Below are positions 9,652 to 53,401 of a stretch of DNA of 56,420 bases, in pieces. The stretch's first letter is position 1. Each line of letters opens with the position of its first letter. The notes below the pieces were generated by a model. It ran no database searches. It worked only from the letters and a program-made list of their open reading frames with translations, and was not told the origin of the DNA. Origin of the DNA: an uncultured Anaerolineaceae bacterium (GTDB taxonomy: Bacteria > Chloroflexota > Anaerolineae > JAAYZQ01); the NCBI GenBank assembly GCA_964387775.1, contig CAYLZO010000003.1:1-56420 (forward strand). The letters run 5' to 3'. A program made the translations under genes and the position numbers.

Positions 9652-9705
9652 TACGTGACGCGTGAGCCCGAGTTCACGTTTCACGCATCACGCAGCACGT
9701 CTCAC
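9634..9705. repeat. Heptamer-phased hairpin acting as bidirectional terminator
   Basis: gtgacac gtaaaac gtgatac gtgacgc gtgagcc / tcacgtt tcacgca tcacgca gcacgtc tcac. It contains both convergent stop codons. Confidence 0.75.
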
Positions 9706-15515: not shown

Positions 15516-17450
15516 ATGCGTTTTGCCGAGGCAGAACAAACCTACCGCGAATTGGAAGAGAGGCTCGTTCGCGGCGAGATAACCGAAGACGAATTCACGG
15601 CCCAGGTCGCCAAGTTGCGATTGGTGGACGAAGAGTGCCGTCGCTGGATGATCAGCCCCCGTACGGGGCGCTGGCTCGTCTACGATGGCCAGCAGTGGGT
15701 CTTTGCCGAGCCGGCGGTGGAAAAAGTCGAGCCGGAGCCGGAAGAAGAGTGGCCGGAAACCGAGGTGCTGGCCCCGGTTGCGGATGCCGAGGCGACCATC
15801 GCGGCCCCGGTGGCTCCGATTGGAGATGTGCCCCGGCGATCGGCCGCGCCCCGCATCCTGACCACCGGGGTCTTGGCCCTGCTGCTCGTCGGTTGTCTCA
15901 TCGGCGGGGGGATCTCGGCCTGGGTCTTTTTGCTGCGCGACTGGGGAGCCACCCCAACGCCGGTCTCCAGCGCCCTGGCCGCCATCGGCCCGGTCGAGAC
16001 GTACACGCCCCGGCCGGCGACGGCGACCTTTACGCCGACGGCCAGCCCCACGCCCAGCCGCACGCCGACGCCGACGATTACGCCCATTCCCACCGACACG
16101 CCGCCAGCCACGAATACGCCCACTTTGAGGCCAACGTCGACCCGGCCGGCCGAGGCGGCGAACACGCCTGGCGCGACAGAGGTAGCCGCCGCGCCGACGG
16201 CCCCGCCGGCGGAGAACAGCAGCCAGACCCACGTCGTCCAGAAAGGCGAGACCCTGTCAGAGATAGCCAGCCGCTACGGCCTGACGGTGAAAGAATTGGC
16301 CGAGGCCAACGGCATCGACAACCCGGCCCTGGTCCGGGTGGGCCAGGTGCTGCTCATCCCGGCGCCGGGGGCCTCTGCCAGCCCGACGCCGACGTGGACG
16401 CCCATTGTGCTCATCACGCCTGCGGTTGAGCCCACGGCGAGTGGCACCGCAGAGGCGACGCCCCCTTCAACCGTGAGTGCAACACCCACGCCCACGTCAA
16501 CGTCCCAAGCCACAGCCCCATCAACGCCAACCGAGAGTGGTCCTACCGCTACGCCCAAACCGACCAACACGCCCAAACCCACGGCCACGCCGACGCCCAA
16601 GCCCGTGGCCCTTTCGGGCAAGATCGCCTTTAGCGTGTGGAATCCCCATCTGGGGATGGGCAAGTACGAGTTGTACGTCAGCAACATCGACGGCAGCGGC
16701 CGGAATATGCTGGGCCAAGGCTTCCGCCAGCCGCAGTTCCGCCAGGACGGCAACTTGTTGGCCGCCAACGGCGACGGGGCGCCGAACCTGGAGCACCTGG
16801 TGACGATGGACGCCAGCGGCAACGGCAAGGTCGAAGTCAGCAACCACACCGAGGATGCCTACCCCACCTGGTCGGCCGATGGGGCCATCGTCGCCTACTC
16901 GTCCAAGTCCTGGGCGGACAGACAGAGCCGCCTGGGCATCGTCCACGACATGTTTGGCAAAAATCAGGACTCGATCAAGATCGGCACCACCGAGATCCGG
17001 GGCGAGTACCCCTTCTGGATGGCCGACGGGCGCGTGGTCTATCACGGCTGCGACTTTATGAATGCCACGTCGGCCTGCGGCCTCTATTGGGTGGGCGCCG
17101 GCGGCGGCAACTATTACCGGCTGACGAACCACCAGAGCGACACGGCCCCGGCCGGCTCTGGCTCCCGCGTGGCCTTTATGTCGGCCCGCGACGGCAACTG
17201 GGAGGTTTATGCCATCAACATGGACGGCTCGGGGCTAAAACGGTTGACCAACAACGGGTCGCAGGACGGCCTGCCCACCTGGTCGCCCGACGGGAACTCG
17301 ATTGCCTTCGTCTCGGATCGGAGCGGTGCCTGGGCCATCTGGGTGATGAACGCCAACGGCAGCAACCAGCGTAAACTCTTTGACCTGGGGGGCGGTTACG
17401 GGGGCGGCGACTACGACTGGACGACCGAGCGCATCTCCTGGGCGCCGTAG
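15516..17450 (+). CDS. Membrane-anchored LysM + PD40/TolB-type beta-propeller protein with PT-rich linkers
   Basis: Cytoplasmic N-domain and one TM helix. LysM (HVVQKGETLSEIASRYGLTVKELAEANGI). Repeated PD40 signatures (WSADGAIVAYSS, PTWSPDGNSIAFVSDR). Confidence 0.7.
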   Translation: MRFAEAEQTYRELEERLVRGEITEDEFTAQVAKLRLVDEECRRWMISPRTGRWLVYDGQQWVFAEPAVEKVEPEPEEEWPETEVLAPVADAEATIAAPVAPIGDVPRRSAAPRILTTGVLALLLVGCLIGGGISAWVFLLRDWGATPTPVSSALAAIGPVETYTPRPATATFTPTASPTPSRTPTPTITPIPTDTPPATNTPTLRPTSTRPAEAANTPGATEVAAAPTAPPAENSSQTHVVQKGETLSEIASRYGLTVKELAEANGIDNPALVRVGQVLLIPAPGASASPTPTWTPIVLITPAVEPTASGTAEATPPSTVSATPTPTSTSQATAPSTPTESGPTATPKPTNTPKPTATPTPKPVALSGKIAFSVWNPHLGMGKYELYVSNIDGSGRNMLGQGFRQPQFRQDGNLLAANGDGAPNLEHLVTMDASGNGKVEVSNHTEDAYPTWSADGAIVAYSSKSWADRQSRLGIVHDMFGKNQDSIKIGTTEIRGEYPFWMADGRVVYHGCDFMNATSACGLYWVGAGGGNYYRLTNHQSDTAPAGSGSRVAFMSARDGNWEVYAINMDGSGLKRLTNNGSQDGLPTWSPDGNSIAFVSDRSGAWAIWVMNANGSNQRKLFDLGGGYGGGDYDWTTERISWAP

Positions 17451-17453
17451 AAA

Positions 17454-17481
17454 GTCGCAAGTGGCAAGTTTCAAGTCTCAA
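17454..17481 (+). repeat. Four tandem heptamers GTNNCAA
   Basis: gtcgcaa gtggcaa gtttcaa gtctcaa immediately after the stop codon at 17450. Confidence 0.7.
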
Positions 17482-18513
17482 GCGGTGGGTGCGTTCGGCC
17501 TGGCCTTGATCGTAGCTCTGGTGGTCTTGCTGATCTCGGGCGGGGCCTCGGCTTCGACGCCGCCCCGGCCGCTGGGCACAGCCACGTTTACGGCGACAGC
17601 CACGCTGACCTTTACCCCGACCTCGACGCCAACGCCCACCGCCACGCCGACCCAGACCCCAACCCCGACCCAGACCCCAACGCCGACCCCAACGCCGACC
17701 CCAACGCCGACGCCCACGCCGACGCCGCTGCCGGCCAGCCCTACGCCCGCCTCCGCCTCGGACCACCTGTGGCTGCTGCCGCCCATCGGCCCTGATGCCG
17801 AGGGCGACCGCTATCCGGGCACCTACTTTCCCTATGGCTCCACGGGCGGCGGGCGCTATCACCTCCACCACGGGGTGGACTATATGAATCCGGCCGGCAC
17901 GCCGGCCCTGGCTGCGGCCGCCGGCACGGTCATCGTCGCCGGGAACGACCTGGAGACGATTTATGGCAAAAAGCCGGATTTCTACGGCAACCTGGTCGTC
18001 TTGGAGCTCGACCGGCCATTCAACGGCCAGCCGGTCTATCTCCTTTACGGCCACCTCTCCCAGGCGCTGGTGAGCGAGGGCGAGCACCTGGAAGCCGGCG
18101 ACACGCTCGGCCTGGTGGGCATGACGGGCGTCGCCATCGGCAATCACCTCCACCTGGAGGTCCGGCTGGGCAGCAACGACTATCGCAGCACGCGCAATCC
18201 GGTCCTCTGGCTGCGGCCGGAGCCGGGCCAGGGGGCCCTCGCCGGCCTGCTGGTCGACGCCCAGGGCCGCCCCCTGCCCGAGACGCCGGTGACCTTTTTC
18301 CGCGCCGCCGAGCCGAACAAGTGGTGGCGCCAGGTGCAGACCTACGCCAACGAGGAGGTCAACCCCGACGACGAGCTGGGCGAGAACTTTGCCCTGGGCT
18401 ACGTGCCGGCGGGCGAGTACCTGGTCAAGGCCAAGGTCAGGGGCAAATCCTACGTCCAACCGGTCACGGTGGAGCGGGGCGAGATCGCGTTTGTGCGCCT
18501 CGTGACCGAGTAG
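17461..18513 (+). CDS. M23-family metallopeptidase (LytM-like) with PT linker
   Basis: HHGVDYM and GNHLHLEVR motifs. Start is ambiguous (GTG 17461, GTG 17485 or ATG 17380). Confidence 0.75.
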   Translation: MASFKSQAVGAFGLALIVALVVLLISGGASASTPPRPLGTATFTATATLTFTPTSTPTPTATPTQTPTPTQTPTPTPTPTPTPTPTPTPLPASPTPASASDHLWLLPPIGPDAEGDRYPGTYFPYGSTGGGRYHLHHGVDYMNPAGTPALAAAAGTVIVAGNDLETIYGKKPDFYGNLVVLELDRPFNGQPVYLLYGHLSQALVSEGEHLEAGDTLGLVGMTGVAIGNHLHLEVRLGSNDYRSTRNPVLWLRPEPGQGALAGLLVDAQGRPLPETPVTFFRAAEPNKWWRQVQTYANEEVNPDDELGENFALGYVPAGEYLVKAKVRGKSYVQPVTVERGEIAFVRLVTE

Positions 18514-19447: not shown

Positions 19448-20608
19448 TCAGCCCAGTTCCCGGGAAGTGGTGTACATGGCGACGATGTTCTCCAGCGGCG
19501 TGTCGGCCTGGAGGTAGTGAGCCGAGGCGCAAATGTAGCCGCCGCCCCGTCCCAAGACCTCACACCGCGCCCGCACCTCGGCCTGGACCTCCTCCGGCGT
19601 GCCGTGGGGCAGGGTCCGCTGGATGTCCACGGCGCCGTGAAACGACAGCCGGTCGCCGAACTCGGCCTTGATGCGGGCCATGTCCATGCCCGCTGCCCGG
19701 GGCTGGAGCGGATTCAAAACGTCGATGCCCATCTCGTCGGCAAAAGCGCCGATGAGGGGGAACACGGCCCCGCACGAATGGTAAAAGATCTTGACCGGGT
19801 ATTTCGCCGCGCGGATGGCGGCGTTGAGCCGCTGGTGGCGGGGCAAGATGTACTTGCGCCACATGCGCGGCGACAGGAGCAGCCCGCCCTGGATGCCCAC
19901 GTCGTCGTAGGTATAGACCGCGTCCAGCAGCCCGCCGGCGGCCTCGATGACGCGCACCGTGTTTTCGATATAGACGTCGGTGAAGCGGTCCATGATGGCG
20001 CTGGCCAGGTCCGGCTTTTCGACCAGGTCCAGTAAAAAGCGCTCAAAGCCGCGCAGGCCCCACGACCACTCGAAAATGCCGCCCACCTCGTAGCGCAGGT
20101 GGTGGCGCCAGGGGCTGTTGAGCCGCTCGCACTGCGCCCGTACGCCCGAGACGTCCCAGTCGTCGGGGCTGGGCCAATCCCAGTTTAGAACGTCGGCCAC
20201 CGTCTCGGCGTCGGCCAGGGGATGGCGGGCGTACTCGTCGTAGGCGCCGAACTCGTTGGCGATGCGGCGGCGATGGGCGCCCCACTCGTCGACGTAGGTG
20301 CCGTCGGCCAACTCGCGGGCCTTGGTGCCCACGTAGCGGGTCGTCACCATGCGGCAGTCCGCGCCCAGCAGGCGCAGGATTTCTTCATCGTCCGCGTCGA
20401 GAGCAGTGCGGAGCCGATCCCACACCTCGTCCACGGCCCAAAAGTCAAAGGGCACGCGGTCGGATTCCCGGAGGGCGAGGGCCGTCTCGACCCGCTCCCA
20501 GGGTGAGATCGGGCTGGTCTCGGGCCGGCCATAGTGGGCGCGCAAATAGGCCCGGAGTTCAGCCGGGTCCTTGAGGATCGAGGCGAGGGTGCCGGAAAGC
20601 GCGGTCAT
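19448..20608 (-). CDS. Uroporphyrinogen decarboxylase (URO-D/MtaA)-family protein
   Basis: Length and C-terminal half (IFYHSCGAV...GIDVLNPLQP...GGGYICASAHYLQ) match the URO-D fold. The start overlaps the permease stop (ATGA). Confidence 0.6.
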   Translation of the reverse strand: MTALSGTLASILKDPAELRAYLRAHYGRPETSPISPWERVETALALRESDRVPFDFWAVDEVWDRLRTALDADDEEILRLLGADCRMVTTRYVGTKARELADGTYVDEWGAHRRRIANEFGAYDEYARHPLADAETVADVLNWDWPSPDDWDVSGVRAQCERLNSPWRHHLRYEVGGIFEWSWGLRGFERFLLDLVEKPDLASAIMDRFTDVYIENTVRVIEAAGGLLDAVYTYDDVGIQGGLLLSPRMWRKYILPRHQRLNAAIRAAKYPVKIFYHSCGAVFPLIGAFADEMGIDVLNPLQPRAAGMDMARIKAEFGDRLSFHGAVDIQRTLPHGTPEEVQAEVRARCEVLGRGGGYICASAHYLQADTPLENIVAMYTTSRELG

Positions 20609-21876
20609 TGCTTCTCGTAGGGCTTGCCCTCCGCCGCCGGGGCGATGGCCCGCCCCACGACGCCGGCCACGACGACGATGGTCAGGATGTAGGGCGCCAT
20701 TTGCAGGAACTCGGGCGGGATGGGGATTTCGATGAAGGGCAGCACCGGCTTGAGGATCTGCATCTTGACCTGGAGCGCGTCGGCAAAGCCAAAGAGGAGG
20801 GCCGCCAGAAAGCCGCCGGTGGGATTCCAGTTGCCAAAGATCATGGCCGCCAGCGCCACAAAGCCCTGGCCCCGCGTCATATTGTCCTCGAAGGAGCCGA
20901 CGACGCCCAGCGAAAAATAGGCCCCGCCGATGCCGGCCACCAGCCCGCCGAGGATGACGCTCACGTAGCGCATGCGGTTGATGTGCACGCCGACGGTGTC
21001 TGCGGCTCGCGGGTGCTCGCCGCAGGCCCGCATCCGCAAGCCCCAGGGCGTGGCAAAGATGACGTAATTGACGACGACCACCAGGATGAGCATGATGAAC
21101 ACCGTCGGCTGGTTGTCAAAGAGGATGGGGCCGACGATGGGGATGTCGGCCAGGACCGGGATGCTGATGGCGTCAAAGTGGCCGGGCGTGCTCAGGCCGG
21201 CGGGCTCTAGCAGGCGCAGGTTGAAAAAGCGGGTGCCCCCGGCGGCCAAAATGTTGATGACCGTGCCCGAGATGATCTGGTCCACCTTGTACTTGATGGA
21301 CAGCACGGCGTGGAGCGAGGCCATCACGCCGCCGAGCAGGCTGGCCATGAGCAGGCCCATCCACAGGCTGCCAAAGACCCCGGCAAAGGCCACGGCGGCA
21401 AAGGCGGCCGTCAGCATCATGCCCTCGATGGCGATGTTGATGATGCCCGCCCGCTCGCAAAAGATGCCAGCCATGGCCCCCAGGGTCAGCGGGGTGGCGG
21501 CCGTCAGCGTGCTCTGGATCATGCCCGGCAGGTTCAGGCTGGTGCCGCTCGTCATCCAGACCAGGAAGGCGAACGCGGCCAGAAAGGCCACACTCCAGCT
21601 CAGGAAGGAGCGAAGGGAGGCCAGCCCCCGGTAGAAGCGCAGCCCGGCCATAAAGAGGCAGAGGATGCCGATGGTGTAGAGCGTGCCCTGGGACGGCAGG
21701 GAAAAGAGCGTGCCCAGCACCTGGTCGGTAAAGGTCGATTGGTCGCCGGGCTGGACGCTGAACCCGCCCAGCACCACAAAGATGGCGCCCAACAGCAACA
21801 CCAGCCCACTGGTCAGAAGATCCTTGCGGCTGAGGCCCGATCTTGGCCTGTCGATGGTTTGTGCTTGCACTGCCAT
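20605..21876 (-). CDS. BMP-family ABC transporter permease (YufQ/NupQ type) with N-terminal TM extension
   Basis: ERAGIINIAIEGMML core. ATG 21876 after GGAGAG. The track's TTG 21933 would translate the hairpin. Confidence 0.8.
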   Translation of the reverse strand: MAVQAQTIDRPRSGLSRKDLLTSGLVLLLGAIFVVLGGFSVQPGDQSTFTDQVLGTLFSLPSQGTLYTIGILCLFMAGLRFYRGLASLRSFLSWSVAFLAAFAFLVWMTSGTSLNLPGMIQSTLTAATPLTLGAMAGIFCERAGIINIAIEGMMLTAAFAAVAFAGVFGSLWMGLLMASLLGGVMASLHAVLSIKYKVDQIISGTVINILAAGGTRFFNLRLLEPAGLSTPGHFDAISIPVLADIPIVGPILFDNQPTVFIMLILVVVVNYVIFATPWGLRMRACGEHPRAADTVGVHINRMRYVSVILGGLVAGIGGAYFSLGVVGSFEDNMTRGQGFVALAAMIFGNWNPTGGFLAALLFGFADALQVKMQILKPVLPFIEIPIPPEFLQMAPYILTIVVVAGVVGRAIAPAAEGKPYEKQ

Positions 21877-21898
21877 GATTCTCTCCAGCCAGTTCTGG

Positions 21899-21937
21899 GA
21901 TATTGGATATTGGCGAGTATCGCCAATATCCAATACT
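21899..21937. repeat. Intercistronic heptamer hairpin (ggatatt x2; 16-bp perfect stem, 3-nt loop)
   Basis: tattggatattggcga gta tcgccaatatccaata between the two permease genes. Confidence 0.8.
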
Positions 21938-21943
21938 CAGTTC

Positions 21944-23398
21944 CTACGCGCCCCAACCCCGCGAAAAGACCGTGATCTCTTCGAGGCCCTCGCGCCGGGC
22001 CTCGCGGAAGCGGTAGATGGCCCGGATGATGGCCGGCGCGGCGATAAAGACGATGACCAGAGACTGGACGATCTGCACGATCTCGGTCGGGATGCCGGCC
22101 ACCGACTGCATCCGCCCCGCCCCGGCACGCAGGACGCCAAAGAGGATGCTGGCCCCCACGACGCCGGCCGGATGGCTCTTGCCCAGCAGCGCCAGGGCAA
22201 TCGAGTCGAATCCATAGCCGGCCTGGAAGCCGAGGGCGATGTTGTGGGTGATACCGAGGCCCTGGCTGACGCCCGCCAGCCCGGCCAGGCAGCCGCTCAG
22301 GAACATGGCCAGCACGTAATTCTTGGCCACGCTCATGCCGCCGTAGCGGGCCGCGTCGGGGTTGGCGCCCACCGTCCGCAGCTCGAACCCCCACGTCGTC
22401 TTGAACAGGAACCAGCCGGTGAGCACCGCCGCTGCCAGGGCCATCACAAAGCCCCAGTGCAGCGTGACCGGGTGGCCGAGAAAGCGGGGCAGGAAGGCGC
22501 TCCCGGCGATGTCGCGGGTGCGGCAGGTGCCCTGGGTGAACTCTAGCGGCCCGCAGAGCAGCCAGTCGCTGAGGCGAAAGACGACGTAGTTGAGCATGAT
22601 GGTGGTAATGACCTCGTGGGCGCCGGTCCGGGCCTTGAGCACGCCGGCGATGGCCGACCAGAGCCCGGCCGCGGCCGCCCCCACCAGGATGGCCAGGGGC
22701 AGGTGCACGATCGCCGGCAAGCCCGGGATGGAGAAGCCCAGGATCACGGCTGCCAGCCAGCCGACGCCGATCTGGCCCTCGGCGCCGATGTTGAACAGGC
22801 CGGCCCGAAAGCCCAGGGCCACCGCCAGCCCGGCGAAAATGTAGGGCACCGACTGGACCAGGCTGTCGCTGGGGCCGCGCACGGCGTTGAGCACCGGCTG
22901 GAGGCCCTCGCCCCCGAGCCAGCGGCCGATGGCGATCAAGATGCGCGCCGGGTCACTGAGCGAGCCCTGGTAGAGCGCGCCGTAGGCCCGGCCCAGGTTG
23001 CCGAACGCCAGGCCGATGGCCTCCCCGATCCGGCCCTCGCCCAGGGCCTGGTAGACGGCCTGGTCGGTGAACATGATGACCAGGGCGCCGATGAGCAGCG
23101 CCGTGACCACCGACAGGGCAGGCACGAGCAGGCCCCGCAGCCGGGTGCTCAGCCACTCCTTCATCCAGGGCCAGCCGCCCCGCCGCGTGGCAAAGAGGGC
23201 CAGCACACCCAGGCCGAGCAGGAGCGTGATGGGCCACAGGCCCAGCGCCACGAGGAGGAGGAGCACCAGCCACTTGCTGAGCAAGACGACGACGCCCACG
23301 GCGGCGGCCAGCAGGGCCGCCCGGGCCCACAGGGGCAGGGCCGCGAGCCGCCGGCCGAGATTTGTCTGACCCGGTTCTCGATCTCCTTCCCTAGCCAA
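21944..23398 (-). CDS. BMP-family ABC transporter permease (YufP/NupP type) with ~78-aa N-terminal TM extension
   Basis: TTG 23398 preceded by GGAGG. The start overlaps the ATPase stop by 8 nt. Canonical permease core begins at MKEWLSTRL. Confidence 0.75.
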   Translation of the reverse strand: MAREGDREPGQTNLGRRLAALPLWARAALLAAAVGVVVLLSKWLVLLLLVALGLWPITLLLGLGVLALFATRRGGWPWMKEWLSTRLRGLLVPALSVVTALLIGALVIMFTDQAVYQALGEGRIGEAIGLAFGNLGRAYGALYQGSLSDPARILIAIGRWLGGEGLQPVLNAVRGPSDSLVQSVPYIFAGLAVALGFRAGLFNIGAEGQIGVGWLAAVILGFSIPGLPAIVHLPLAILVGAAAAGLWSAIAGVLKARTGAHEVITTIMLNYVVFRLSDWLLCGPLEFTQGTCRTRDIAGSAFLPRFLGHPVTLHWGFVMALAAAVLTGWFLFKTTWGFELRTVGANPDAARYGGMSVAKNYVLAMFLSGCLAGLAGVSQGLGITHNIALGFQAGYGFDSIALALLGKSHPAGVVGASILFGVLRAGAGRMQSVAGIPTEIVQIVQSLVIVFIAAPAIIRAIYRFREARREGLEEITVFSRGWGA

Positions 23399-25262: not shown

Positions 25263-25288
25263 CGCCGCTCCCTCTTGTTAACAACGGA

Positions 25289-25368
25289 TTTGCAGAATGA
25301 ACGGATTAAGCGAGACAGTGCCAACGCCTAACCTCTCGGCCAAATACGATCCGTCAATTCTGCAAATT
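25289..25368. repeat. 19-nt inverted repeat (2 mismatches) in the SBP-ATPase intercistronic gap
   Basis: atttgcagaatgaacggat ... atccgtcaattctgcaaat. Confidence 0.7.
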
Positions 25369-25384
25369 CACTGTTCTCACAAGG

Positions 25385-25416
25385 GGCGGTGCCGAGCAGA
25401 CACTCGGCACCGCCCA
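25385..25416 (-). terminator. GC-rich 13-bp hairpin after the SBP gene (partial terminator or processing site)
   Basis: gggcggtgccgag cagaca ctcggcaccgccc. No U-tract follows on the minus strand. Confidence 0.45.
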
Positions 25417-25440
25417 CAAGGTCAAGCTAGTTGTGGCTGG

Positions 25441-32364: not shown

Positions 32365-33126
32365 TCAATCGCCCTTGCCCACGGCCGCCACGATGGCGGG
32401 CAGCACCTCGGCCACGTCGCCGTGGATGACGACGTCGGCCTGGGCGTCAAATGCCGTAGGTTGCAGATTGACGATGATGGCCCGGGCGCCGCTCTCCACT
32501 GCCACAAACGGCACGTCGGCGGCGGGGGTGACCTCCAGCGACGAACCGGCGACCAGGACCAGGTCGGCGCGGCGGGCCTCGGCCATCGCTTCGTTGAGCA
32601 CGTGGATGGGCAATTGCTCGCCAAAGAGAATGACGTCGGGCTTGAGCACGCCGCCGCAGGCGCAGCGAGGTACCTTTCCTTCGAGGATGGAGTGTTCGAG
32701 GCTGGGGTCCACCGGTACTTTTTCGTAGCAGCGGATACAGGTCGCCTCGCGCAGGTGGCCGTGGAGCTCCAGCACCCGGCGCGAGCCGGCCCGTTGGTGG
32801 AGGTTGTCGATGTTCTGGGTGACAATGGTTTGCAGGTGGCCCATCGCCTCCAGGTCGGCCAGGGCCCGGTGGGCGGGGTTGGGCGGGGCGTTGAGCAGCA
32901 ACTCGGCCATCGGCCGGATCCAGTCGTAGAACGTCTTGGGGTTCAGGCGAAAGGCCCAGATGGAGGCCACGAGCATGGGATTGCTCGTTTCCCATAGCCC
33001 GGAGCCAGGGCCGCGAAAGTCGGGGATGCCCGAGGGCGTGCTGTGTCCGGCGCCCGTGAAAGCCATCATGTGCCGGGAGCGGCGGATCAGTTCGGCAGCC
33101 CGTTCGATGCGGTCTTGGATGCGCAT
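32365..33126 (-). CDS. cobB: NAD-dependent protein deacylase (Sir2/CobB)
   Basis: GAGHSTPSGIPDFRG, QNIDNLH and the Zn ribbon CIRC...CACGG. Confidence 0.85.
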   Translation of the reverse strand: MRIQDRIERAAELIRRSRHMMAFTGAGHSTPSGIPDFRGPGSGLWETSNPMLVASIWAFRLNPKTFYDWIRPMAELLLNAPPNPAHRALADLEAMGHLQTIVTQNIDNLHQRAGSRRVLELHGHLREATCIRCYEKVPVDPSLEHSILEGKVPRCACGGVLKPDVILFGEQLPIHVLNEAMAEARRADLVLVAGSSLEVTPAADVPFVAVESGARAIIVNLQPTAFDAQADVVIHGDVAEVLPAIVAAVGKGD

Positions 33127-33143: not shown

Positions 33144-33234
33144 GCGTATTGCGTATTCCGTATTGCGTAGATGCTGATCACGGGTCACGTTTCACACGTT
33201 ACGCTGTACGCAATACGCTGTACGCAATACGTTC
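33144..33234. repeat. 13 phased heptamers forming an inverted repeat (gcgtatt-type / tacgcaa-type)
   Basis: gcgtatt gcgtatt ccgtatt gcgtaga tgctgat cacgggt cacgttt cacacgt tacgctg tacgcaa tacgctg tacgcaa tacgttc. Confidence 0.85.
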
Positions 33235-33237
33235 TGG

Positions 33238-33936
33238 TCAGAGCAATGCCGGTTGCCTGTTCTCAATCTCCAACTCTGCGCCGCCGGCCACTTTGTGTGC
33301 CCAGCGCGTCGTCTCGGGCAGGCGGTAGCCGCGGCCGCAGCGCAGCACGAACGCGATGGCCGTCTCCAGGTCCACCCGGTGGCCGATGGACACAAAGACC
33401 GGCTTCACATTCTTTCGAGTGCGAAGGACCGCGCCGATGGTCTCCTCGCCGTCCTTCAGTGGCGACCAATCCCCGACTTTGTTGCCGGGCTCCTCGTACT
33501 CGCCCGTGAGCCGCGACTTGGCGCAGCCGATACTCGGCCGGTCGAGCAGCACGCCCATGTGGGCTGCCAGGCCGATGCGCAGGGGGTGGGCGATGCCCTG
33601 CCCGTCAAAGAGAAAGAGGTCGGGCCAGGTGTCGAGCTGCTCCAGGGCGGCCAGAACTGCCGGCCCCTCACGGAAGGTCAGCAGGCCGGGCACGTAGGGG
33701 AACGAGATCTCGGTCTCGGCCCGGGCATAATCCACCGGTTCGAGGTCCGGGAGGCTGAGCACCACCCCGGCCGCCCGCGTCTTTCCTTCCGGGAATCCGA
33801 CGTCCACCCCGGCCACGGTGCGCACCGACTCCGGGTCGAAGGTGGTCTCGCGGATCACGCGCTCGGCCAGCCACGATTGCAGGTCCTTGGCTTCGTCTGT
33901 AGATAGATCCCACGAATGGGAGATGGCCGTCTCCAC
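33238..33936 (-). CDS. nfi: Endonuclease V
   Basis: AGVDVGF, PYVPGLLTFREGP, DGQGIAHPLRIGLA and GHR motifs. GTG 33936 lies 10 nt after GGAGG. The longer track ORF would translate a repeat hairpin. Confidence 0.8.
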   Translation of the reverse strand: METAISHSWDLSTDEAKDLQSWLAERVIRETTFDPESVRTVAGVDVGFPEGKTRAAGVVLSLPDLEPVDYARAETEISFPYVPGLLTFREGPAVLAALEQLDTWPDLFLFDGQGIAHPLRIGLAAHMGVLLDRPSIGCAKSRLTGEYEEPGNKVGDWSPLKDGEETIGAVLRTRKNVKPVFVSIGHRVDLETAIAFVLRCGRGYRLPETTRWAHKVAGGAELEIENRQPALL

Positions 33937-33961: not shown

Positions 33962-34014
33962 GTATTGCGTATGGCGGACGGTGCAACTGAGCCGGGGATA
34001 CGCAATACGGAATA
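33962..34014. repeat. Hairpin gtattgcgtat/atacgcaatac carrying the inverted 16-mer partner of 33154-33169
   Basis: 33999-34014 is the exact reverse complement of tattccgtattgcgta at 33154-33169. Confidence 0.8.
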
Positions 34015-39536: not shown

Positions 39537-39566
39537 AAACGGGGGCGGATGATTCCGTCCCCGTTT
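39537..39566. terminator. Bidirectional terminator hairpin
   Basis: aaacgggggcgg atgatt ccgtccccgttt between convergent genes. Confidence 0.7.
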
Positions 39567-40966: not shown

Positions 40967-41755
40967 CTATCCTCTGAGCGCTTCTTCTTCGGGCTCGATT
41001 ACTTCAAAGCCAGCTTCCCGCAGGACCATCGCCCGCCGGCTGTGAATGGACGCAGTCGCCAAGACAAAGCGCACGGGCTCTACACCCACGGCCTGTGTAT
41101 AAAGTTCTCGCTTGCGTTCCAGGCGCTCCTGGATTGTGGAGCCCACGCTGGCAGCGATCTCGACCAGGATGTGTTGGCCGTCAAAGATGATGCAATCGAA
41201 TTGCTCGCCCTCGATCCAGCGCTCTTTTAACTGTGAGCCAAAGGATTCTTCGAGCAATTCCTTGATCGTCTGCCGAAACAGGCTCTCGTTGCGAATGCCC
41301 CAGCGGCTTCCCAGGCGGTCAATGGCCCGGTGGAGTTCCTGGAAACCAGCTTCCATTCGTGCTTCAAGGTGCTCGAAGCGTTGGTCCACCTGCTCGAAGC
41401 GTTGGTCCACCTGCTCGAAACGTTGGTCCACCTGCTCGAAACGGCCATCTACTTGCTCGAAACGTTGGTCCACCTGCTCGAAACGGCCATCTACTTGCTC
41501 GAACCGCTGGTCCACCTGCTCGAAGCGTCGATCTACTTGCTCCAAGTGCTCGTCCACCCGCTCAAAACCCGAGCGAGTTTCCGCCCGCAAGGCGTGGATC
41601 TCGTCAAAAATGGCAGCGACCTCTTCCTTCGTGACAAACGTCGTCATGAAAGCGCGATAAATGCGTGGTTCCAGGTCGGGTCGCTGCTCAAGCAGTTCCG
41701 TCAATTGTCGCTCGAACAGGTCAATCAGTTCTTCGTCCGTCAGCTTGGTAGCCAT
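40967..41755 (-). CDS. DUF3782-like coiled-coil protein with C-terminal PD-(D/E)XK-like domain
   Basis: ATG 41755 after GGAG. Central (R)FEQVD(Q/G)R heptad array. C-terminal E...DCIIFDGQHILVEIAAS resembles a restriction-endonuclease-like fold. Confidence 0.5.
   Translation of the reverse strand: MATKLTDEELIDLFERQLTELLEQRPDLEPRIYRAFMTTFVTKEEVAAIFDEIHALRAETRSGFERVDEHLEQVDRRFEQVDQRFEQVDGRFEQVDQRFEQVDGRFEQVDQRFEQVDQRFEQVDQRFEHLEARMEAGFQELHRAIDRLGSRWGIRNESLFRQTIKELLEESFGSQLKERWIEGEQFDCIIFDGQHILVEIAASVGSTIQERLERKRELYTQAVGVEPVRFVLATASIHSRRAMVLREAGFEVIEPEEEALRG
41369..41557 (-). repeat. 9 x 21-bp in-frame tandem repeat
   Basis: Units ctgctcgaa[ag]cg[tg]tggtccac / ...acggccatctac, with degenerate copies at both ends. 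Confidence 0.9.
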
Positions 41756-41847: not shown

Positions 41848-41894
41848 GTACTGTGTGTTGTGTGTGCGGGAAGCGCACACACAACACACAGTAC
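41848..41894 (-). terminator. 21-bp perfect GT/CA-rich hairpin with GGAAG loop
   Basis: gtactgtgtgttgtgtgtgcg ggaag cgcacacacaacacacagtac. A second hairpin ccactga/tcagtgg lies at 41896-41916. Confidence 0.65.
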
Positions 41895-41966: not shown

Positions 41967-43487
41967 TCACCGGCTCCACGAGATCACGCGCTCGCTGGCA
42001 AACTCGTAGCGGATGCCCAGGGGGTCCAGGTTCGCGCCGAACATGGGCCGCTGGCCCGTGCCGTCGGCGTTCATGACGTAAAGGCGCCACGGGCCGTCGC
42101 GGTTCGAGAGGAAGGCGATCCGGGCGCCGTCGGGCGACCAGGCCGGGGCGACGTTGCTGGGCGGCGCCTCCAGGTCCGGGTCGCTCCAGGTCAGCCGCCG
42201 GCGTCCCGAGCCATCGGCGTTCATGACGAAAATCTCCCAGCGATTGTGCACGCGGCCCATGTAGGCGATCCGCTGCCCATCGGGCGAAAAGGTGGGCGAA
42301 TTGTCCCAAGCGCTGCCACCGGCGAAGCGGCCCGTCTCTATCTCGTCCTGGGGTCCCCAGAGGTCCGTCTTAGGAAAATCAATCCAGGCCAGCCCCCGGC
42401 CGCCGGCGTAGACGATGCGCTCGCCGCCGGGGCTCCACGTGGGCGCGTGGACGGCCTGGTCGTCGAGGGGCAGGTTGAGCAGCCGGCCGGTGTCCAGGTC
42501 GGCGACCCAGATCTGGCCGAAGGAAAAGGGCGGGATGGTGAAGCAGAAGCCAAAGAAGCAGAGCTCCATCGGCTCGCCGGAGCTGTAGTTGATGGTGAGG
42601 GCGACCTGCCGCCCACCCGGCGCCCAGGCCGGCTCCTTCAGGCGAATGCCATCCACCAGGCGTTCTTCGCCGCTGCCGTCCGGGGCGATGACGTACAGGC
42701 CCCAGGGATGGCGCCAGCGGGTAAAGGCGATCGCGCTCCGATCCGGCGCCCAAGCGGGGTCGAGGCCGTCGGTCAGCCGCCGCAGCCCCGAGCCATCGGC
42801 GTTGATGAGATAGATGTTGCCCCCACTGCTGGCCTGGAAGACGAGTCGGCCGTCGAGTGGGGCGCGCTGTTGCTGCCGGCTGGCGCTGGCGGGCCTGGGC
42901 GTCGGCGTGGGCGCCAGTGTCTGGACGCTGGATAGGGAGATGCGATCGATCAGCCACAGGCCCCGCTCGGGGGTGAGGACCAGTGTCATCGTCTGCGTAG
43001 CGGGCGCGTCCTCGCCGATCCCGGCCCAGCGGAGCAGCGTCCGCGCCTCGTAGCTGGTGGCCGTTGCGTGGCGGAATTCCAGCAGGGTGGCATCGACCAG
43101 GGCGGGAGCGGCGGCGACAAAGTCGGAAAGGAGCTGGCCGGCCTCGCCCTGCTGGGCTTCGTCGGTCAGGTAGAGGCGAAAGGCACTTTCCACCTCGCCC
43201 CGGGCCAGGCGGTTCAGGAAATCCCACGCCGTGCGTTCGGCCAGGAGGTCGTCCACTTTGGAAAGGGGCTCAGGATCGGGGTCCACCACCGGGGCCGGCG
43301 TGGCCGTGGGCGGCTGCTCGACAGGCAGAGCCGTCGCAGTCGCCGGCGGCTGGGTAGCTCGGGGCCGGGGCGTCGCCGTCGCCGCCAGCGGGATCGCTGT
43401 GGCCGTCGGCTCCAGTGAGGTCGGCCCGCACGCGGCCAGGGACAGGACCAGTCCGAAAAGGATGAGCAGGACAAGACGTATTCGCAT
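41967..43487 (-). CDS. Lipoprotein with PT-rich linker and PD40/TolB-like beta-propeller
   Basis: MRIRLVLLILFGLVLSLAAC lipobox. Repeated WAPDRSAIAF, WSPGGERIVY, FSPDGQRIAY and WSPDGARIAF. Confidence 0.7.
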   Translation of the reverse strand: MRIRLVLLILFGLVLSLAACGPTSLEPTATAIPLAATATPRPRATQPPATATALPVEQPPTATPAPVVDPDPEPLSKVDDLLAERTAWDFLNRLARGEVESAFRLYLTDEAQQGEAGQLLSDFVAAAPALVDATLLEFRHATATSYEARTLLRWAGIGEDAPATQTMTLVLTPERGLWLIDRISLSSVQTLAPTPTPRPASASRQQQRAPLDGRLVFQASSGGNIYLINADGSGLRRLTDGLDPAWAPDRSAIAFTRWRHPWGLYVIAPDGSGEERLVDGIRLKEPAWAPGGRQVALTINYSSGEPMELCFFGFCFTIPPFSFGQIWVADLDTGRLLNLPLDDQAVHAPTWSPGGERIVYAGGRGLAWIDFPKTDLWGPQDEIETGRFAGGSAWDNSPTFSPDGQRIAYMGRVHNRWEIFVMNADGSGRRRLTWSDPDLEAPPSNVAPAWSPDGARIAFLSNRDGPWRLYVMNADGTGQRPMFGANLDPLGIRYEFASERVISWSR

Positions 43488-43503: not shown

Positions 43504-44739
43504 CTATTCATAGCGCAGCGCGTCGATGGGGTTGAGCCTCGCGGCGCGGAAGGCGGGATAGATGCCAAAGAGCAGCCCCACGGCGGCCGAGACGCCTGTG
43601 GAGAGCAAAATCACGTCGGGCGTGACGACCGTCGTGAGCTGCTCGGCCAGGCCGGCCACCACCTGCGAGCCCGTGATGCCCAGGGCGATGCCGATGCCGC
43701 CGCCGATGAGCGAAAGCACCACCGCCTCCACCAGGAACTGGACGAGGATGTCGCGCCGCTTGGCGCCGACGGCCTTGCGGATGCCGATCTCGCGGGTCCG
43801 CTCGGTGACCGACACGAGCATGATGTTCATGATGCCGATGCCGCCCACGACCAGCGAGATGGCGGCGATGGCCCCCAGAAAGAGGGTCAGCACGCCGGTG
43901 ATGTCGCCAAAGATCGAGATGATGTCCGTCTGCTTGATGATGGAAAAATCGTCGTCGTCGCGGAAGGCGATGTCGTGGCGCTGGCGCAATAGCTCGGTGA
44001 TCTGCTCCGAGGCCCGGTCCATGAGCGCTTCGTCGGCGACCTGGACATAGATGGTGGACAGGAGGGGTTCGCCCTGGCGGCTGCGCCAGTTGGGAAAGAG
44101 CCGGGCGTGGGCCGTGGTCAGCGGCACGTAAATGGTATTGTCCACGCCGCCGAACGACGAGCCCCCCGACTCTTCCAGGACGCCGATGACGCGAAAGGGA
44201 ACGCGGTTGATCTTGATTGTCTGCCCGATGGCATAGACGCCTTCCTCAAAGAGGTTCTCGTAGGCCTTGCTGCCCAGGACGGCCACCCGCGAGCGGGCGC
44301 TGACGTCGGCGTCGGAGACAAAGCTCCCAAAGGCGATTTCTTTTTTCCGAAGGATGGAGAATTCGGGTGTGACGCCCGAGATGTCGGTGCGGATGTCGCG
44401 CCGGCCGTTGACCACGTCGGCCCGGCCGGCCACCTCGGGGGCGACGCCCACCGCGTCGGGCACCCGAAAGGGGTCGGCGATGGCCCGGTAGTCGCTCATG
44501 GTCATCTCGGGGCGGCGGGTGCTCGACGTGCCTTCCAGCGAGCCGGGAAAGACAAAAAGCAGGTTGGAGCCGATCTCCTGGAACGACTCCTGGACCAGTT
44601 GCTCCACGCCCTTGCCCACCGACATGAGGGTGATGACCGCCCCCACGCCGATGATGATGCCCAGCATGGTCAGGATAGCGCGCAGTTTGTTCGACAGCAG
44701 CGCCCGTAGTGCAATTCGGATGCTCTCAGCAAAAGTCAT
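43504..44739 (-). CDS. MacB/FtsX-type ABC transporter permease
   Basis: N-terminal MacB_PCD layout and C-terminal FtsX motif (RTREIGIRKAVGA). Confidence 0.85.
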   Translation of the reverse strand: MTFAESIRIALRALLSNKLRAILTMLGIIIGVGAVITLMSVGKGVEQLVQESFQEIGSNLLFVFPGSLEGTSSTRRPEMTMSDYRAIADPFRVPDAVGVAPEVAGRADVVNGRRDIRTDISGVTPEFSILRKKEIAFGSFVSDADVSARSRVAVLGSKAYENLFEEGVYAIGQTIKINRVPFRVIGVLEESGGSSFGGVDNTIYVPLTTAHARLFPNWRSRQGEPLLSTIYVQVADEALMDRASEQITELLRQRHDIAFRDDDDFSIIKQTDIISIFGDITGVLTLFLGAIAAISLVVGGIGIMNIMLVSVTERTREIGIRKAVGAKRRDILVQFLVEAVVLSLIGGGIGIALGITGSQVVAGLAEQLTTVVTPDVILLSTGVSAAVGLLFGIYPAFRAARLNPIDALRYE

Positions 44740-44755
44740 CTGATTTCCAATGGAT

Positions 44756-44790
44756 AGTGGGTAGCTTACAGCAACTACAAGCTACCCACT
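44756..44790. repeat. Intercistronic 12-bp perfect hairpin
   Basis: agtgggtagctt acagcaactac aagctacccact between the ATPase and permease genes. The flank shows 7-nt phasing (ctacaag ctaccca ctacgat ctacaat). Confidence 0.75.
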
Positions 44791-44795
44791 ACGAT

Positions 44796-45509
44796 CTACA
44801 ATCTTTTGTCGTCCTCAATCAGTCCATCCCGAAGATAAACGATCCGCCGCGTCTGCTCGGCGATCTCGGGATCGTGGGTCACAAAAACAACGGTGATGTC
44901 CCGCTCCTCGTTCAGCCGGTAAAAGATGTCCATGATCTCTTCGCCCGACGTCGTGTCCAGGTTGCCCGTCGGCTCGTCGGCCAGGATGATGGACGGCTCG
45001 CTGACCAGGGCGCGGGCGATGGCCACCCGCTGCTGCTGGCCGCCCGACAGTTCGTTGGGCCGGTGGCCCATGCGGTCGCCCAGTCCCACTGCTTCGAGAG
45101 CCGCCTTGGAGCGCTCGCGCCGCTCTCGGGCGCCAACCCCGGCGTAGATGAGCGGCAGCGTCACGTTTTGGAAAGCCGTCGTCCGGGATAGGAGGTTAAA
45201 GGTTTGGAAGACGAACCCGATCATGCGGTTGCGGATCTCGGCCAAGGCGTTGTCGTCGAGCTTTCCCACGTCCGTGCCGTCGAGCCAGTAGCGGCCCGAG
45301 GTCGGCTGGTCGAGGCAGCCGACGACGTTCATCAGCGTCGACTTGCCCGAGCCCGACGGCCCCATGATGGACAGGAACTCGCCTTCCGAGACCTGGAGGG
45401 ACACGCCGCGCAGGGCGTGCACCTCGACGTCGCCCATCTGGTAGACTTTGGTGATGTCCTCGATGCGGATCAACCCGTTCTTGGTCATTGGTCCTTTGCC
45501 ACTGGTCAT
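44796..45509 (-). CDS. MacB/LolD-type ABC transporter ATP-binding protein
   Basis: [24 protein letters not shown] and ILADEPT. Confidence 0.9.
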
Positions 45510-51158: not shown

Positions 51159-52118
51159 ATGCGCGTGATAGGTCGAAATGCGGTACTCGTCAGTATTGTC
51201 TTTCTCCTGGCTCTGTCCTTCGGAGCGCAGCCGGTGCAGGCCCAGGCCCACGTCGTCCAACGGGGCGAGACGCTGTCGTCCATCGCCGCCCGCTACGGCA
51301 CCACGCCCCAGGCCCTTGCCAGCGCCAATGGGCTGGCCAACGCCAACTACATCTATGCCGGGCAGCGGCTGGCCATCCCCGGCGGGGGCGGCGGCGGCAC
51401 CTACACCGTCGGGCCCGGCGACACGCTGGCTGCCATCGCGGCGCGGCACGGCACGACGGTCAACGCCCTGGTGCAGGCCAACGGCCTGGCCAATGCCAAC
51501 TACATTTACGCCGGCCAGAAGCTGCGCATCCCCGGCGGGGGCAGCAACAGCAGCGGCTCGGTCCACGTGGTGCAGCGAGGCGACACGCTGGCCGCCATCG
51601 CCTATCGCTACGGCACGACGGCCTGGGCCATCGCCAACGTCAACGGGCTGGCCAACCCCAATCGGATTTACGCCGGCCAGAAGCTGCGCATCCCGGCCGG
51701 CGGCGGGGCGGCGCCCGCCCCGGCATCGCCAGGCGGCGGCGGCAAGCGCATCGTCATCGACCTGTCGGACCAGCGCATGTACGTCTACCAGGGCGGGCAG
51801 TTGCTCTGGAACTGGACGGTCTCGACGGGGCGGCCGGGTCAAGAGACGGCCGTGGGCCACTACAAGGTGCTCAACAAGATCCCCAACGCCTACGCCTACA
51901 CCTGGAGCCTGCAAATGCCCTATTGGCTGGGCATCTATTGGGCCGGCAGTTTGCAGAACGGCATCCACGCCCTGCCCATCCAGGCCAACGGCCAGCGACT
52001 GTGGGACGGCTACCTGGGCCAGCGGGTGTCCTACGGCTGCGTGATTCTCGGCACCGAGCAGGCCAAGGCGCTCTACAATTGGGCGCCGGTGGGCACGCCG
52101 GTAGACGTCGTTTGGTAA
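51159..52118 (+). CDS. Secreted 3x LysM + YkuD L,D-transpeptidase
   Basis: Three HVVQRGETL/YTVGPGDTL LysM repeats. YkuD catalytic region GIHALP...SYGCVIL. Confidence 0.85.
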   Translation: MRVIGRNAVLVSIVFLLALSFGAQPVQAQAHVVQRGETLSSIAARYGTTPQALASANGLANANYIYAGQRLAIPGGGGGGTYTVGPGDTLAAIAARHGTTVNALVQANGLANANYIYAGQKLRIPGGGSNSSGSVHVVQRGDTLAAIAYRYGTTAWAIANVNGLANPNRIYAGQKLRIPAGGGAAPAPASPGGGGKRIVIDLSDQRMYVYQGGQLLWNWTVSTGRPGQETAVGHYKVLNKIPNAYAYTWSLQMPYWLGIYWAGSLQNGIHALPIQANGQRLWDGYLGQRVSYGCVILGTEQAKALYNWAPVGTPVDVVW

Positions 52119-52119
52119 G

Positions 52120-52194
52120 ACGTATTCCGTATAGCGTAAAGCGTAAAGCGTAAAACGTAAAGCGCAAGACCATTACGTTTTACGCTTTACGCTT
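52120..52194 (+). repeat. Heptamer-phased hairpin/terminator (gcgtaaa-type x7 / tacgctt-type x3)
   Basis: acgtatt ccgtata gcgtaaa gcgtaaa gcgtaaa acgtaaa gcgcaag accat tacgttt tacgctt tacgctt, followed by a T run. Confidence 0.85.
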
Positions 52195-52210
52195 TTTCAG
52201 GGAGATCATC

Positions 52211-53401
52211 ATGTCCATCGAAGTAGACGCGGAAGCAGGAACTGCCCCGGCGGACCCCTTCCAGACCGGCGACGTGACGACCATCAGCGCCGGGCACGCG
52301 GTCCACGACACGTACACGGCCTTCCTGTCGCCCCTGTTGCCCGCTTTTATCGAGAACCTATCTTTGTCCAACACCGAGGCCGGGGTGCTGACGGTCTTTA
52401 ACCAGGCACCGTCGCTGCTCCAGCCCCTCATCGGCCACCTGGCCGACCGGGTGAGCCTGCGCTACGCCGTCATCCTGGCGCCGGGCGTGACGGCCACGGC
52501 CATGAGCCTGCTGGGCATCGCGCCGGCCTACGCCGTGCTGGCCCTGCTGCTGACCGTGACCGGTCTCAGCTCGGCCACGCTCCACTCGGTGGCGCCGGTG
52601 ATGGCCGGGCGGCTCTCGGGCCGCAACCTGGGCCGGGGCATGGGCTTTTGGATGGTCGGCGGCGAGTTGGGGCGCACGCTGGGGCCGCTGGTCATCGCCG
52701 CCTATTTCCTGGTCAAGCCCGACAGCCTGGCCAGCCTGCCCCTGCTGATGATCGGTGGTTGGCTGGCCACGGCGCTGCTCTTTGTCCGGCTGCGCGACGT
52801 GCGGGTCCGCCCGCCCGGCGCCGGCGAGGGGCTGCCCTGGCGGCAGGCCCTGGGCGTGATGGGCCCCTTCCTGGTGCCGCTGGTGGGCATCATCGTCGTG
52901 CGCTCCTTCATGTCGGCGGCGCTGACCACCTATCTGCCCGTCTTTCTCACCGCCGAGGGCGCCGAGCTCTGGTTCGCGGGCATCAGCCTCTCGGTGCTGG
53001 AGGCCGCGGGCGTGGTCGGCGCGCTGCTGGGCGGCTCTCTGAGCGACCGGCTGGGCCGGCGGACCATGCTGCTACTCTCGCTGCTCACCACGCCGCCTCT
53101 GATGCTGGCCTTTCTGGCCGTAGATGGCTGGGTGCGCTTCCTGCTGTTGCTGGGCCTGGGCCTCTCGGCGCTGTCGGTCACGCCCGTGCTCATGGCCCTG
53201 GTACAGGAGAGCTTTCCCCAGAACCGGGCGCTGGCCAACGGCGTCTATATGGCGCTGAGCTTCCTGATCCGCTCCGGCGTGGTCGTGGTGGTCGGCGGCA
53301 TGGGCGACCTGTGGGGATTGCGGCTGGCCTTTGGCGTCAGCGCCGTGATTCCGCTGCTGGGCTTGCCCTTCCTGCGGCTGCTCCCGGCGCGGCGGCGCTG
53401 A
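52211..53401 (+). CDS. MFS transporter
   Basis: 12 predicted TM helices. Loop 2-3 motif GHLADRVSLR. Confidence 0.8.
   Translation: MSIEVDAEAGTAPADPFQTGDVTTISAGHAVHDTYTAFLSPLLPAFIENLSLSNTEAGVLTVFNQAPSLLQPLIGHLADRVSLRYAVILAPGVTATAMSLLGIAPAYAVLALLLTVTGLSSATLHSVAPVMAGRLSGRNLGRGMGFWMVGGELGRTLGPLVIAAYFLVKPDSLASLPLLMIGGWLATALLFVRLRDVRVRPPGAGEGLPWRQALGVMGPFLVPLVGIIVVRSFMSAALTTYLPVFLTAEGAELWFAGISLSVLEAAGVVGALLGGSLSDRLGRRTMLLLSLLTTPPLMLAFLAVDGWVRFLLLLGLGLSALSVTPVLMALVQESFPQNRALANGVYMALSFLIRSGVVVVVGGMGDLWGLRLAFGVSAVIPLLGLPFLRLLPARRR

Follow-up and report, generated by a model that had tools for sequence, protein, structure and literature searches.

Repeats with a 7-nt unit have been described in several groups of bacteria. 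The short tandemly repeated repetitive (STRR) sequences of the cyanobacteria Calothrix and Nostoc/Anabaena are dispersed and intergenic and come in several unit types per genome; their function is disputed, and slippage has been proposed as their origin. Intergenic repeats of the heptamer TAACTGA occur in Beggiatoaceae, cyanobacteria and Bacteroidetes (MacGregor, 2015, PMC4679880). Xanthomonas genomes each carry 70–75 convergent pairs of GGGAATC heptamer arrays, whose potential to form stem-loops was noted (Rehm et al., 2015, PLoS One, PMC4692102); the length of these arrays varies between related species, and the repeat type is constant per locus (PMC4692102). In bacteria at large, heptanucleotide long simple sequence repeats (SSRs) are over-represented, a finding that PMC4692102 credits to Mrazek et al. 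(2007). Here we document the anatomy, statistics, positions, lineage distribution and turnover of heptamer repeats, often paired into hairpins, in a 56,420-nt stretch of DNA from an uncultured Anaerolineaceae bacterium (Chloroflexota; GenBank assembly GCA_964387775.1, contig CAYLZO010000003.1, positions 1 to 56,420; hereafter the window), with the element at 52120–52195 as the leading example. With modest confidence, we read these elements as STRR-like heptamer SSR arrays that were made by slippage, folded back into stem-loops and act as RNA hairpins at gene boundaries.

Like the GGGAATC arrays of Xanthomonas, those of the window are tandem heptamers in a genome of ~65% G+C (65% in the window itself), are almost wholly intergenic and form inverted pairs, in which arrays of one unit lie close together on opposite strands. 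Xanthomonas uses one G-rich, G-quadruplex-forming unit, whereas the window has several A/T-rich families with a fixed core and without G-tracts (none in the units CGTRWWR, CAAGNNN, CCAATAT and CTACNNN). The phylum also differs, and most loci of the window (7–8 of 10) take the form of a hairpin. The Xanthomonas pairs show that a first, sequence-only reading of the window was incorrect in holding inverted heptamer arrays to be undescribed. With STRR sequences the elements share the 7-nt unit, the presence of several unit types in one genome, dispersal and intergenic location, but the units differ, and STRR sequences are mainly direct arrays, with few paired inverted arrays in Nostoc. The TAACTGA repeats resemble those of the window in being intergenic, in numbering 2–6+ copies, in often ending just before a start codon and in occurring in filamentous bacteria, and a post-transcriptional role has been proposed for them; they consist, however, of one invariant heptamer with 1 of 170 inverted, whereas the units described here are variable and mostly inverted. 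Full-text literature searches yielded no account of such repeats from Chloroflexi or Anaerolineae. Earlier publications cover both the excess of heptamer SSRs and the pairing of heptamer arrays in inverted orientation, and the elements are not a new category; what is new is the phylum, the multi-family vocabulary of fixed cores and variable positions, the predominance of hairpins, the interchange with ordinary hairpins and the concerted turnover of both arms.

The period of seven is a property of the non-coding DNA of the window, as delimited on a gene map of crude codon-usage calls. Intergenic base identity at lag 7 is 0.297 against 0.256 ± 0.006 in shuffles (z = 6.9; reached in 0 of 300), which bears out the enrichment anticipated by the sequence-only reading. 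The signal echoes at lags 14 and 21 (z = 4.8 at lag 21), and the coding DNA has 3n periodicity only. Nine spacers carry the signal, and without them lag-7 identity drops to 0.270 and the peak is lost. A strict lag scan requiring 13 of 14 matches recovered four lag-7 arrays, all of them intergenic, versus 0.1 in dinucleotide shuffles. A fixed-core detector (four units, at least four invariant columns) found nine arrays at lag 7 versus 0–1 at lags 8–11; non-coding DNA makes up ~10% of the window, yet holds eight of these nine. Tandem Repeats Finder (TRF) reported head-to-tail period-7 arrays of 2.3–5.3 copies at 8614–8641, 8646–8665, 9681–9699, 17452–17482, 21898–21913, 33144–33169, 33200–33231, 52128–52164 and 52173–52195. 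About a quarter of the intergenic gaps contain heptamer runs. Stems of 12 bp or longer occur in 13 of the 36 spacers that measure 25 nt or more, and in the arms of seven of these 13 long spacer hairpins identity at lag 7 is 0.60–0.86, other lags reaching at most 0.38.

Each unit combines a fixed core of 3–4 nt (mostly CGT/ACG, CAA/TTG or CAC/GTG) with 3–4 variable, A/T-rich positions. Five of the nine window arrays have a contiguous fixed-4/variable-3 pattern, and a sixth has three contiguous variable and three fixed columns; over all 71 detected arrays, contiguity of the variable columns was not significant (18 of 65 versus 20–33% expected). The sequence CGTATTCCGTAT is indeed identical at 33152 and 52121, and no two window loci share an identical stretch longer than 12 nt. 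Apart from one locus at 17454, the loci listed in the sequence-only reading fold into stems of 14–25 bp with z = −2.5 to −10 relative to shuffles.

The hairpin at 52120–52195 (plus strand) fills the spacer between a YkuD/LysM gene (51234–52118) and an MFS gene (52211–53401). Its left array comprises seven CGTNNNN units (52121–52169), and its stem (52138–52160/52173–52195) has 23 bp with 100% pairing and a 12-nt loop (ΔG −33.8, z = −6.0). The hairpin ends 15 nt before the MFS ATG and is followed by TTTTT. A second large hairpin, at 33144–33234 (minus strand), fills the spacer between the genes for endonuclease V (33238–33936) and Sir2 (32365–33126). Its 25-nt arms of CGTATTG-type units (33145–33169/33207–33231) are 88% complementary, and the 5′ arm of the sense strand (33200–33231) has a 14-nt superperiod. 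We also considered whether the 52120 array (unit CGTATAG) was seeded by what is left of a promoter, GGTATACT; the two share a 5-nt resemblance only, and we make no claim for it.

Most elements start at a stop codon or shortly past it and extend to ~15–20 nt before the next start codon, and at 52120, 33144 and 44752 the ribosome-binding site is the sole remainder of the spacer. In relatives, the hairpins begin −13 to +15 nt from the stop codon and end 16–29 nt before the next start. Two window hairpins each separate subunit genes of one ABC transporter. That at 21898–21938 (minus strand; 17 bp, two CCAATAT units per arm, fold z = −8 to −10) lies between two permease genes (21944–23398 and 20605–21801) of a Bmp-type ABC transporter operon. 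That at 44752–44804 (minus strand), built of CTACNNN units with the stem TAGTGGGTAGCTT/AAGCTACCCACTA (z = −5.1), lies between an ABC ATPase gene (44796–45488) and a MacB/FtsX permease gene (43504–44739).

Such positions recall the repetitive extragenic palindromic (REP) sequences and bacterial interspersed mosaic elements (BIMEs) of enterobacteria and pseudomonads, imperfect palindromes that follow stop codons in short spacers, often within operons (ABC-transporter operons, for example), where they stabilize the upstream mRNA and modulate read-through. The elements of the window are like REPs and BIMEs in position and in the way they would work; the likeness is one of mode of action and not of family membership.

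We considered whether the hairpins are intrinsic, factor-independent terminators of a lineage-specific type that needs no U-tract. Several directly follow stop codons. One, at 9634–9705 (units GTGANNC/NNNCACG; fold z = −7.0/−6.0), sits at the convergent ends of the genes at 8707–9651 (plus) and 9702–9941 (minus) and overlaps both stop codons. The T-run after 52120 points the same way, as does a heptamer hairpin in two relatives (L105 and L113), which lies at a convergent gene end occupied in the window by a classical terminator. A terminator scan of the window, however, flagged that classical hairpin (39537–39566) and 0 heptamer hairpins. T-tails are mostly absent, with short T-runs only at 52120 and 9634, and the hairpins at 21898 and 44752 lie inside ABC-transporter operons. 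The short CGT-heptamer hairpin at 33962–34014 (minus strand; two units per arm, 33962–33975/33995–34008) is within the 5′ untranslated region (UTR) of the endonuclease V gene, downstream of a promoter TTGCCA-17-TG-TACAGT (34062–34034). The element at 8614–8679 is upstream of a promoter's −10 element, and no promoter is visible between the 52120 hairpin and the MFS start codon. We therefore reject canonical intrinsic termination, in agreement with the initial view that these are not simple terminators, and regard the lineage-specific variant as very unlikely.

The same repeats occur in related genomes. The fetched related loci (L-numbers), mostly from Anaerolineae metagenome-assembled genomes (MAGs), total 1.23 Mb; a 1.48-Mb set combines the window with fetched loci, again mostly Anaerolineae. 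Across the 1.23 Mb, lag 7 is the commonest tandem lag (25 arrays versus at most 14 among lags 4–15), and 48 merged heptamer loci were found. Runs of at least four identical trinucleotides at an exact period number 167 for period 7 in the 1.48 Mb, versus 16–39 for periods 5, 8, 10 and 11. The leading period-7 cores are ACG/CGT (19 versus 0 at other periods), CAA/TTG (15 versus at most 1) and CAC/GTG (7 versus 0), the same three that had been picked out in the window from its sequence. The CGT family, whose profile is C-G-T-R-W-W-R, is represented by 147 units from 20 records including the window. The unit families CGTRWWR, CAAGNNN, CCAAYNT and GAGTAAC recur in many mostly Anaerolineae MAGs, which supports the earlier suggestion of a dispersed repeat family of the lineage. 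Relatives hold two forms: direct-only arrays, which in L080 reach at least 14 units, and inverted hairpins, the longest being one of 34 bp in L021.

Dispersed, palindromic and extragenic elements could also be mobile, of a REP/BIME type or resembling MITEs (miniature transposable elements with inverted repeats), and spread by a REP-associated tyrosine transposase (RAYT) or another transposase. Stretches of 12–17 nt are common to different loci and genomes, for example GCGTGTTGCGTGATCCG at 8621–8637 of the window and in a 5′ UTR of L105, and between L012 and L013 a whole spacer differs by the presence or absence of a hairpin. REPs, however, are copies of one 20–40-nt consensus mobilized by RAYT, whereas here tandem 7-mers make up the arms, each locus has its own units and length, and there is no consensus beyond the unit vocabulary and no internal REP-like motif. 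We accordingly rejected REP/BIME membership, finding neither such a consensus nor a flanking tetranucleotide, and MITE membership, finding no near-identical copies; nor did we see conserved termini, a GTAG-type guide or target-site duplications, although duplications were not searched systematically. A search for RAYT/IS200-like genes, which the sequence-only reading had recommended for the whole genome, was negative within the window, with no transposase, RAYT or IS200-like domain among the 40 window proteins scanned against Pfam. Orthologous elements, moreover, change by turnover of units in place. Mobility is thus extremely unlikely in our judgment. Of the two roles first proposed for the elements, a target of a REP-type recombinase lacks the consensus and termini, and an RNA structure is plausible, with ordinary hairpins at the same sites in relatives.

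Some arrays in relatives deserve separate mention. Long direct heptamer arrays of up to 16 units (CCAATCT/CCAACCT, GCCACTT and others) at L021 2962–3028, L022 2723–2784, L062 18603–18717 and L022 20294–20352 lie inside long open reading frames predicted by a crude caller. Linker peptides that repeat every seven residues may be encoded there, unless the frames were miscalled. In L013, positions 19533–19574 read TTTTACG twice, CAATACG twice and CCTCACG twice; as each variant occurs exactly twice in succession, simple slippage from one unit does not explain this array.

Orthologous spacers reveal how the elements change. On either side of the endonuclease V gene, the spacer has a CGT-heptamer hairpin, at matching positions, in the window, in L105–L107 (78% amino-acid identity) and in L113 (74%). 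Between the endonuclease V and Sir2 genes, the hairpin is made of CGTATTG/CAATACG with four units per arm in the window, of CGTGGTGCGTG/CACGCACCACG in L105 and of ACGTAAAACGTAAA/TTTACGTTTTACG in L113. The variable tetranucleotides thus differ (ATTG/CAAT, GGTG/CACC, AAAA/TTTT), and the CGT core and the complementarity of the arms are retained. The hairpins in the endonuclease V 5′ UTR likewise differ in their variable bases between the window, L105–L107 and L113. Orthologous hairpins have two versus four units per arm, and the left arm in L113 has decayed. The comparison of orthologous intergenic regions called for in the sequence-only reading thus showed elements at these spacers in three species, and most other relatives were without them.

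Closer relatives show the shorter steps. L012 and L013 are 91.6% identical in their syntenic block, in which one hairpin-bearing spacer is wholly replaced, a 15-nt indel distinguishes the two versions of one direct array, and one hairpin persists with two substitutions that are not compensated. Differences between the stems of L105 and L113 are likewise uncompensated, and we rule out base-by-base compensatory evolution for these two close pairs. Turnover consists of decay by point mutation and renewal in unit-sized steps in both arms, with the core kept.

Heptamer hairpins can also be exchanged for other structures. L105 and L113 have a CAAGT-heptamer hairpin at the convergent gene end where the window has the GC hairpin at 39537–39566, which indicates that heptamer and ordinary hairpins interchange at gene boundaries. 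In ~10 syntenic relatives, the spacer between the YkuD and MFS genes contains a conserved TGTGGTATACT promoter and a structured leader, or a GC hairpin (L084, L087), and a heptamer array in none of them; the window spacer retains only the ribosome-binding context CAGGGAGA...ATG. As a side observation, the promoter TGTGGTATACTG is conserved directly after the YkuD stop codon in L081–L083, L088–L092, L008 and L024 (for example L088 4725–4890). Next in these spacers comes a structured leader of 60–130 nt, in which a terminator-like hairpin, GGGCCGGGTTTTCTGTTGCC, precedes the MFS start. This leader has no Rfam match, is absent from the window and may be an uncharacterized cis-regulatory leader.

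Taken together with the positions, these changes lead us to infer from sequence comparison an origin by slippage and fold-back and a function at the RNA level. Arrays would arise and grow in place, within short non-coding spacers, through slipped-strand mispairing. Template switching of the fold-back (intrastrand) kind, proposed on the model of quasipalindrome correction, would then form the inverted copy; this step is suggested by the joint change of the variable-base sets in both arms, single substitutions being uncompensated. The outcome would be a stem-loop of 14–25 bp reaching from the stop codon to ~15–20 nt before the next start. After the upstream gene it could act as a barrier to 3′-exonucleases and a partial terminator, a role comparable to that of REP/BIME hairpins in enterobacterial operons; alternatively, it could provide the downstream message with a protective or processing structure at its 5′ end. 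A generic RNA hairpin at the gene boundary is the most likely role because ordinary GC-rich hairpins occupy the same positions in relatives. Over 18 co-directional hairpins, G·U pairs number 45 on the sense strand versus 24 on the antisense strand, a bias that gives weak to moderate support to an RNA-level role.

Several observations weigh against this reading. The excess of G·U pairs on the sense strand stems from four hairpins in relatives, and the window hairpins have no sense-strand preference, five of six folding slightly better as antisense. Relatives other than those sharing the endonuclease V hairpins, at 72–77% identity, are without elements at the orthologous spacers. The uncompensated stem substitutions at short distance imply that selection for perfect pairing is weak. 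Three Logan contigs of essentially the same strain are identical across the arrays at 33144 and 33962 (one has two SNPs nearby) and show none of the copy-number change expected of a phase-variable contingency SSR, although this sample is small. Finally, slippage alone does not explain a fixed core of 3–4 nt beside positions that vary.

Some of these points would suit neutral by-products of slippage and quasipalindrome mutational bias, functionless and confined to spacers by their removal from coding DNA. Conservation is patchy, most relatives at ~70–77% identity having no elements at orthologous sites; stem substitutions are uncompensated, as the decayed left arm of L113 illustrates; strand asymmetry is absent from the window hairpins; and direct-only and inverted forms coexist. 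A published idea, cited in PMC4692102, is also that 7 bp suits polymerase slippage. Against a neutral origin stand the constancy of the same cores from array to array and genome to genome next to positions that vary, the retention of a CGT hairpin in two orthologous spacers of three species with the variable bases fully replaced, the consistent boundaries, which reach from the stop codon almost to the ribosome-binding site, and the excess of sense-strand G·U pairs in relatives. We consider neutrality unlikely, if still the most credible of the alternatives.

The fixity of the core keeps alive a model in which a protein reads the array and, more generally, a dedicated mechanism. RNA-binding precedents exist in HutP-like recognition of UAG motifs at N4 spacing and in the 7-nt footprints of cold-shock proteins. 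A protein could read the 3–4-nt core at 7-nt spacing on RNA or DNA, the hairpin being a sequestering or alternative state. This would account for the fixed core, the exact period and the free intervening bases. It would also suit direct-only arrays immediately before start codons, as in L017 and at 17454–17481 of the window (plus strand), where four CAAGTNN units fill the 34-nt spacer between the genes at 15516–17450 and 17485–18513 and form no hairpin (fold z = 0.3). At 8614–8679 an array overlaps a −35 hexamer. This CGTGNNN hairpin, with 24-nt arms (8615–8638/8647–8670) that are 79% complementary, lies in the divergent spacer between a HIT gene (8070–8552, minus) and a metallo-beta-lactamase-fold gene (8707–9651, plus). 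The tail of its right array is the −35 hexamer TTTACG of a promoter-like site at 8672–8700, TTTACG-17-(TG)TACAAT, which ends 6 nt before the ATG of the latter gene, so that its mRNA is probably leaderless. Heptamer-binding partners have been speculated on in Nostoc (bioRxiv 10.1101/2022.06.06.494920), as has binding of cold-shock proteins (Csp) in Beggiatoa (PMC4679880). On the other hand, at least 5–6 different cores in one genome would need several readers, most arrays are self-complementary and would occlude single-strand binding, the genes next to elements have no common functional theme, and no candidate protein was identified. A protein reader is, on balance, distinctly improbable.

We return to the preferred reading, of slippage-made boundary hairpins, to describe the remaining loci. 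At 41848–41894 (minus strand), a perfect 21-bp hairpin, GTACTGT GTGTTGT GTGTGCG (arms 41848–41868/41874–41894, 100%), stands after a PD40 gene (41967–43256) and upstream of a promoter at 41817–41789; it is GT-rich, and its heptamer periodicity is weak (lag-7 identity 0.64 versus 0.67 at another lag). At 45481–45509 (minus strand), a weak direct array of TGACCAN fills the 27-nt spacer between HlyD and ABC ATPase genes; its minus strand reads TGACCAG TGGCAAA GGACCAA TGACCAA and extends into the start codon. Its plus-strand unit TTGGTCA is the same as the cyanobacterial STRR2 unit, probably by coincidence.

This last array and the hairpin at 44752–44804 are additions to the loci first listed by the sequence-only reading. 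The listed loci were borne out with corrections: 17454 is a direct array only, and 21899, 33962 and 41848 have just 2–3 units per arm; 7981–8024, also counted as a member, is an ordinary palindrome with a lag-7 identity of 0.24. The inverted arms described at 52120, 33144, 8614 and 41848 were recovered at 79–100% complementarity. The 7-nt phase, said to run through whole elements, is strict inside each arm and shifts between arms in most of them, as seen in a CG-lattice analysis. Arms of 21 nt are not typical, measured lengths being 14–25 nt.

Other repeats and hairpins of the window are not heptameric. Between the gene for a Bmp substrate-binding protein and the ATPase gene of the ABC operon lie a 37-nt imperfect inverted repeat (25270–25385), whose arms are separated by 42 nt and 76% complementary, and a GC-rich hairpin (25406–25437). 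The spacer between a binding-protein gene and an ATPase gene is a classic site for hairpins that raise expression of the binding protein. A 21/42-nt tandem repeat (9.5 and 4.7 copies) at 41370–41568 is a coding repeat inside the gene at 40967–41755, which matches DUF3782, PDDEXK_10 and many coiled-coil families and is absent from the syntenic relative L105. A 162-nt tandem repeat (2.9 copies) at 51248–51706 matches the three LysM domains that the YkuD L,D-transpeptidase gene encodes.

The 40 proteins scanned against Pfam give the window an ordinary content of housekeeping and envelope genes. Rfam had no match in the window and, across L088, L081, L105 and L113, a tRNA as its sole match; in the window, ARAGORN detected neither tRNA nor tmRNA. 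For the MFS, YkuD and endonuclease V proteins, the best relatives are at 73–78% amino-acid identity, in MAGs mostly labelled Anaerolineae/Anaerolineales (Chloroflexota), and searches with these three proteins found no genome of the same genus. An exact-protein look-up of the MFS gene gave no match, the best amino-acid identities being 73% in a genome scan and 77% in a metagenome scan. With endonuclease V, the only protein at 100% was the window's own and the next was at 78%. The three short Logan contigs assigned to the same strain come from three sequencing runs and encode an identical endonuclease V protein. One of them, L104, ends at window position 33157, inside the 33144 array. The end of a short-read contig inside an array suggests that such arrays fragment metagenome assemblies and are probably under-represented in MAGs.

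A more far-reaching proposal, which we hold to be improbable, is that Anaerolineae possess a dedicated and as yet undescribed mechanism by which hairpins at gene boundaries are written and renewed, a small set of heptamers serving as its vocabulary. It may be a protein that recognizes a 4-nt core at 7-nt spacing, or a fold-back template switch that regenerates both arms. If true, it would account for the invariant core, the concerted replacement of variable bases in both arms and the uncompensated substitutions, and it would amount to a REP-like system without RAYT.

Bacterial heptamer repeats were described around 1990 and their role is still debated; the orthologous sets assembled here allow their function to be studied. 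For annotation, the heptamer hairpins are structures that terminator predictors overlook, and for evolutionary studies they offer a way to follow how palindromes are regenerated. If our reading of slippage-made arrays folded back into boundary hairpins is correct, a large and mostly uncultured class of bacteria makes many of the stem-loops at its gene boundaries from slippage-prone heptamers rather than from unique palindromes.

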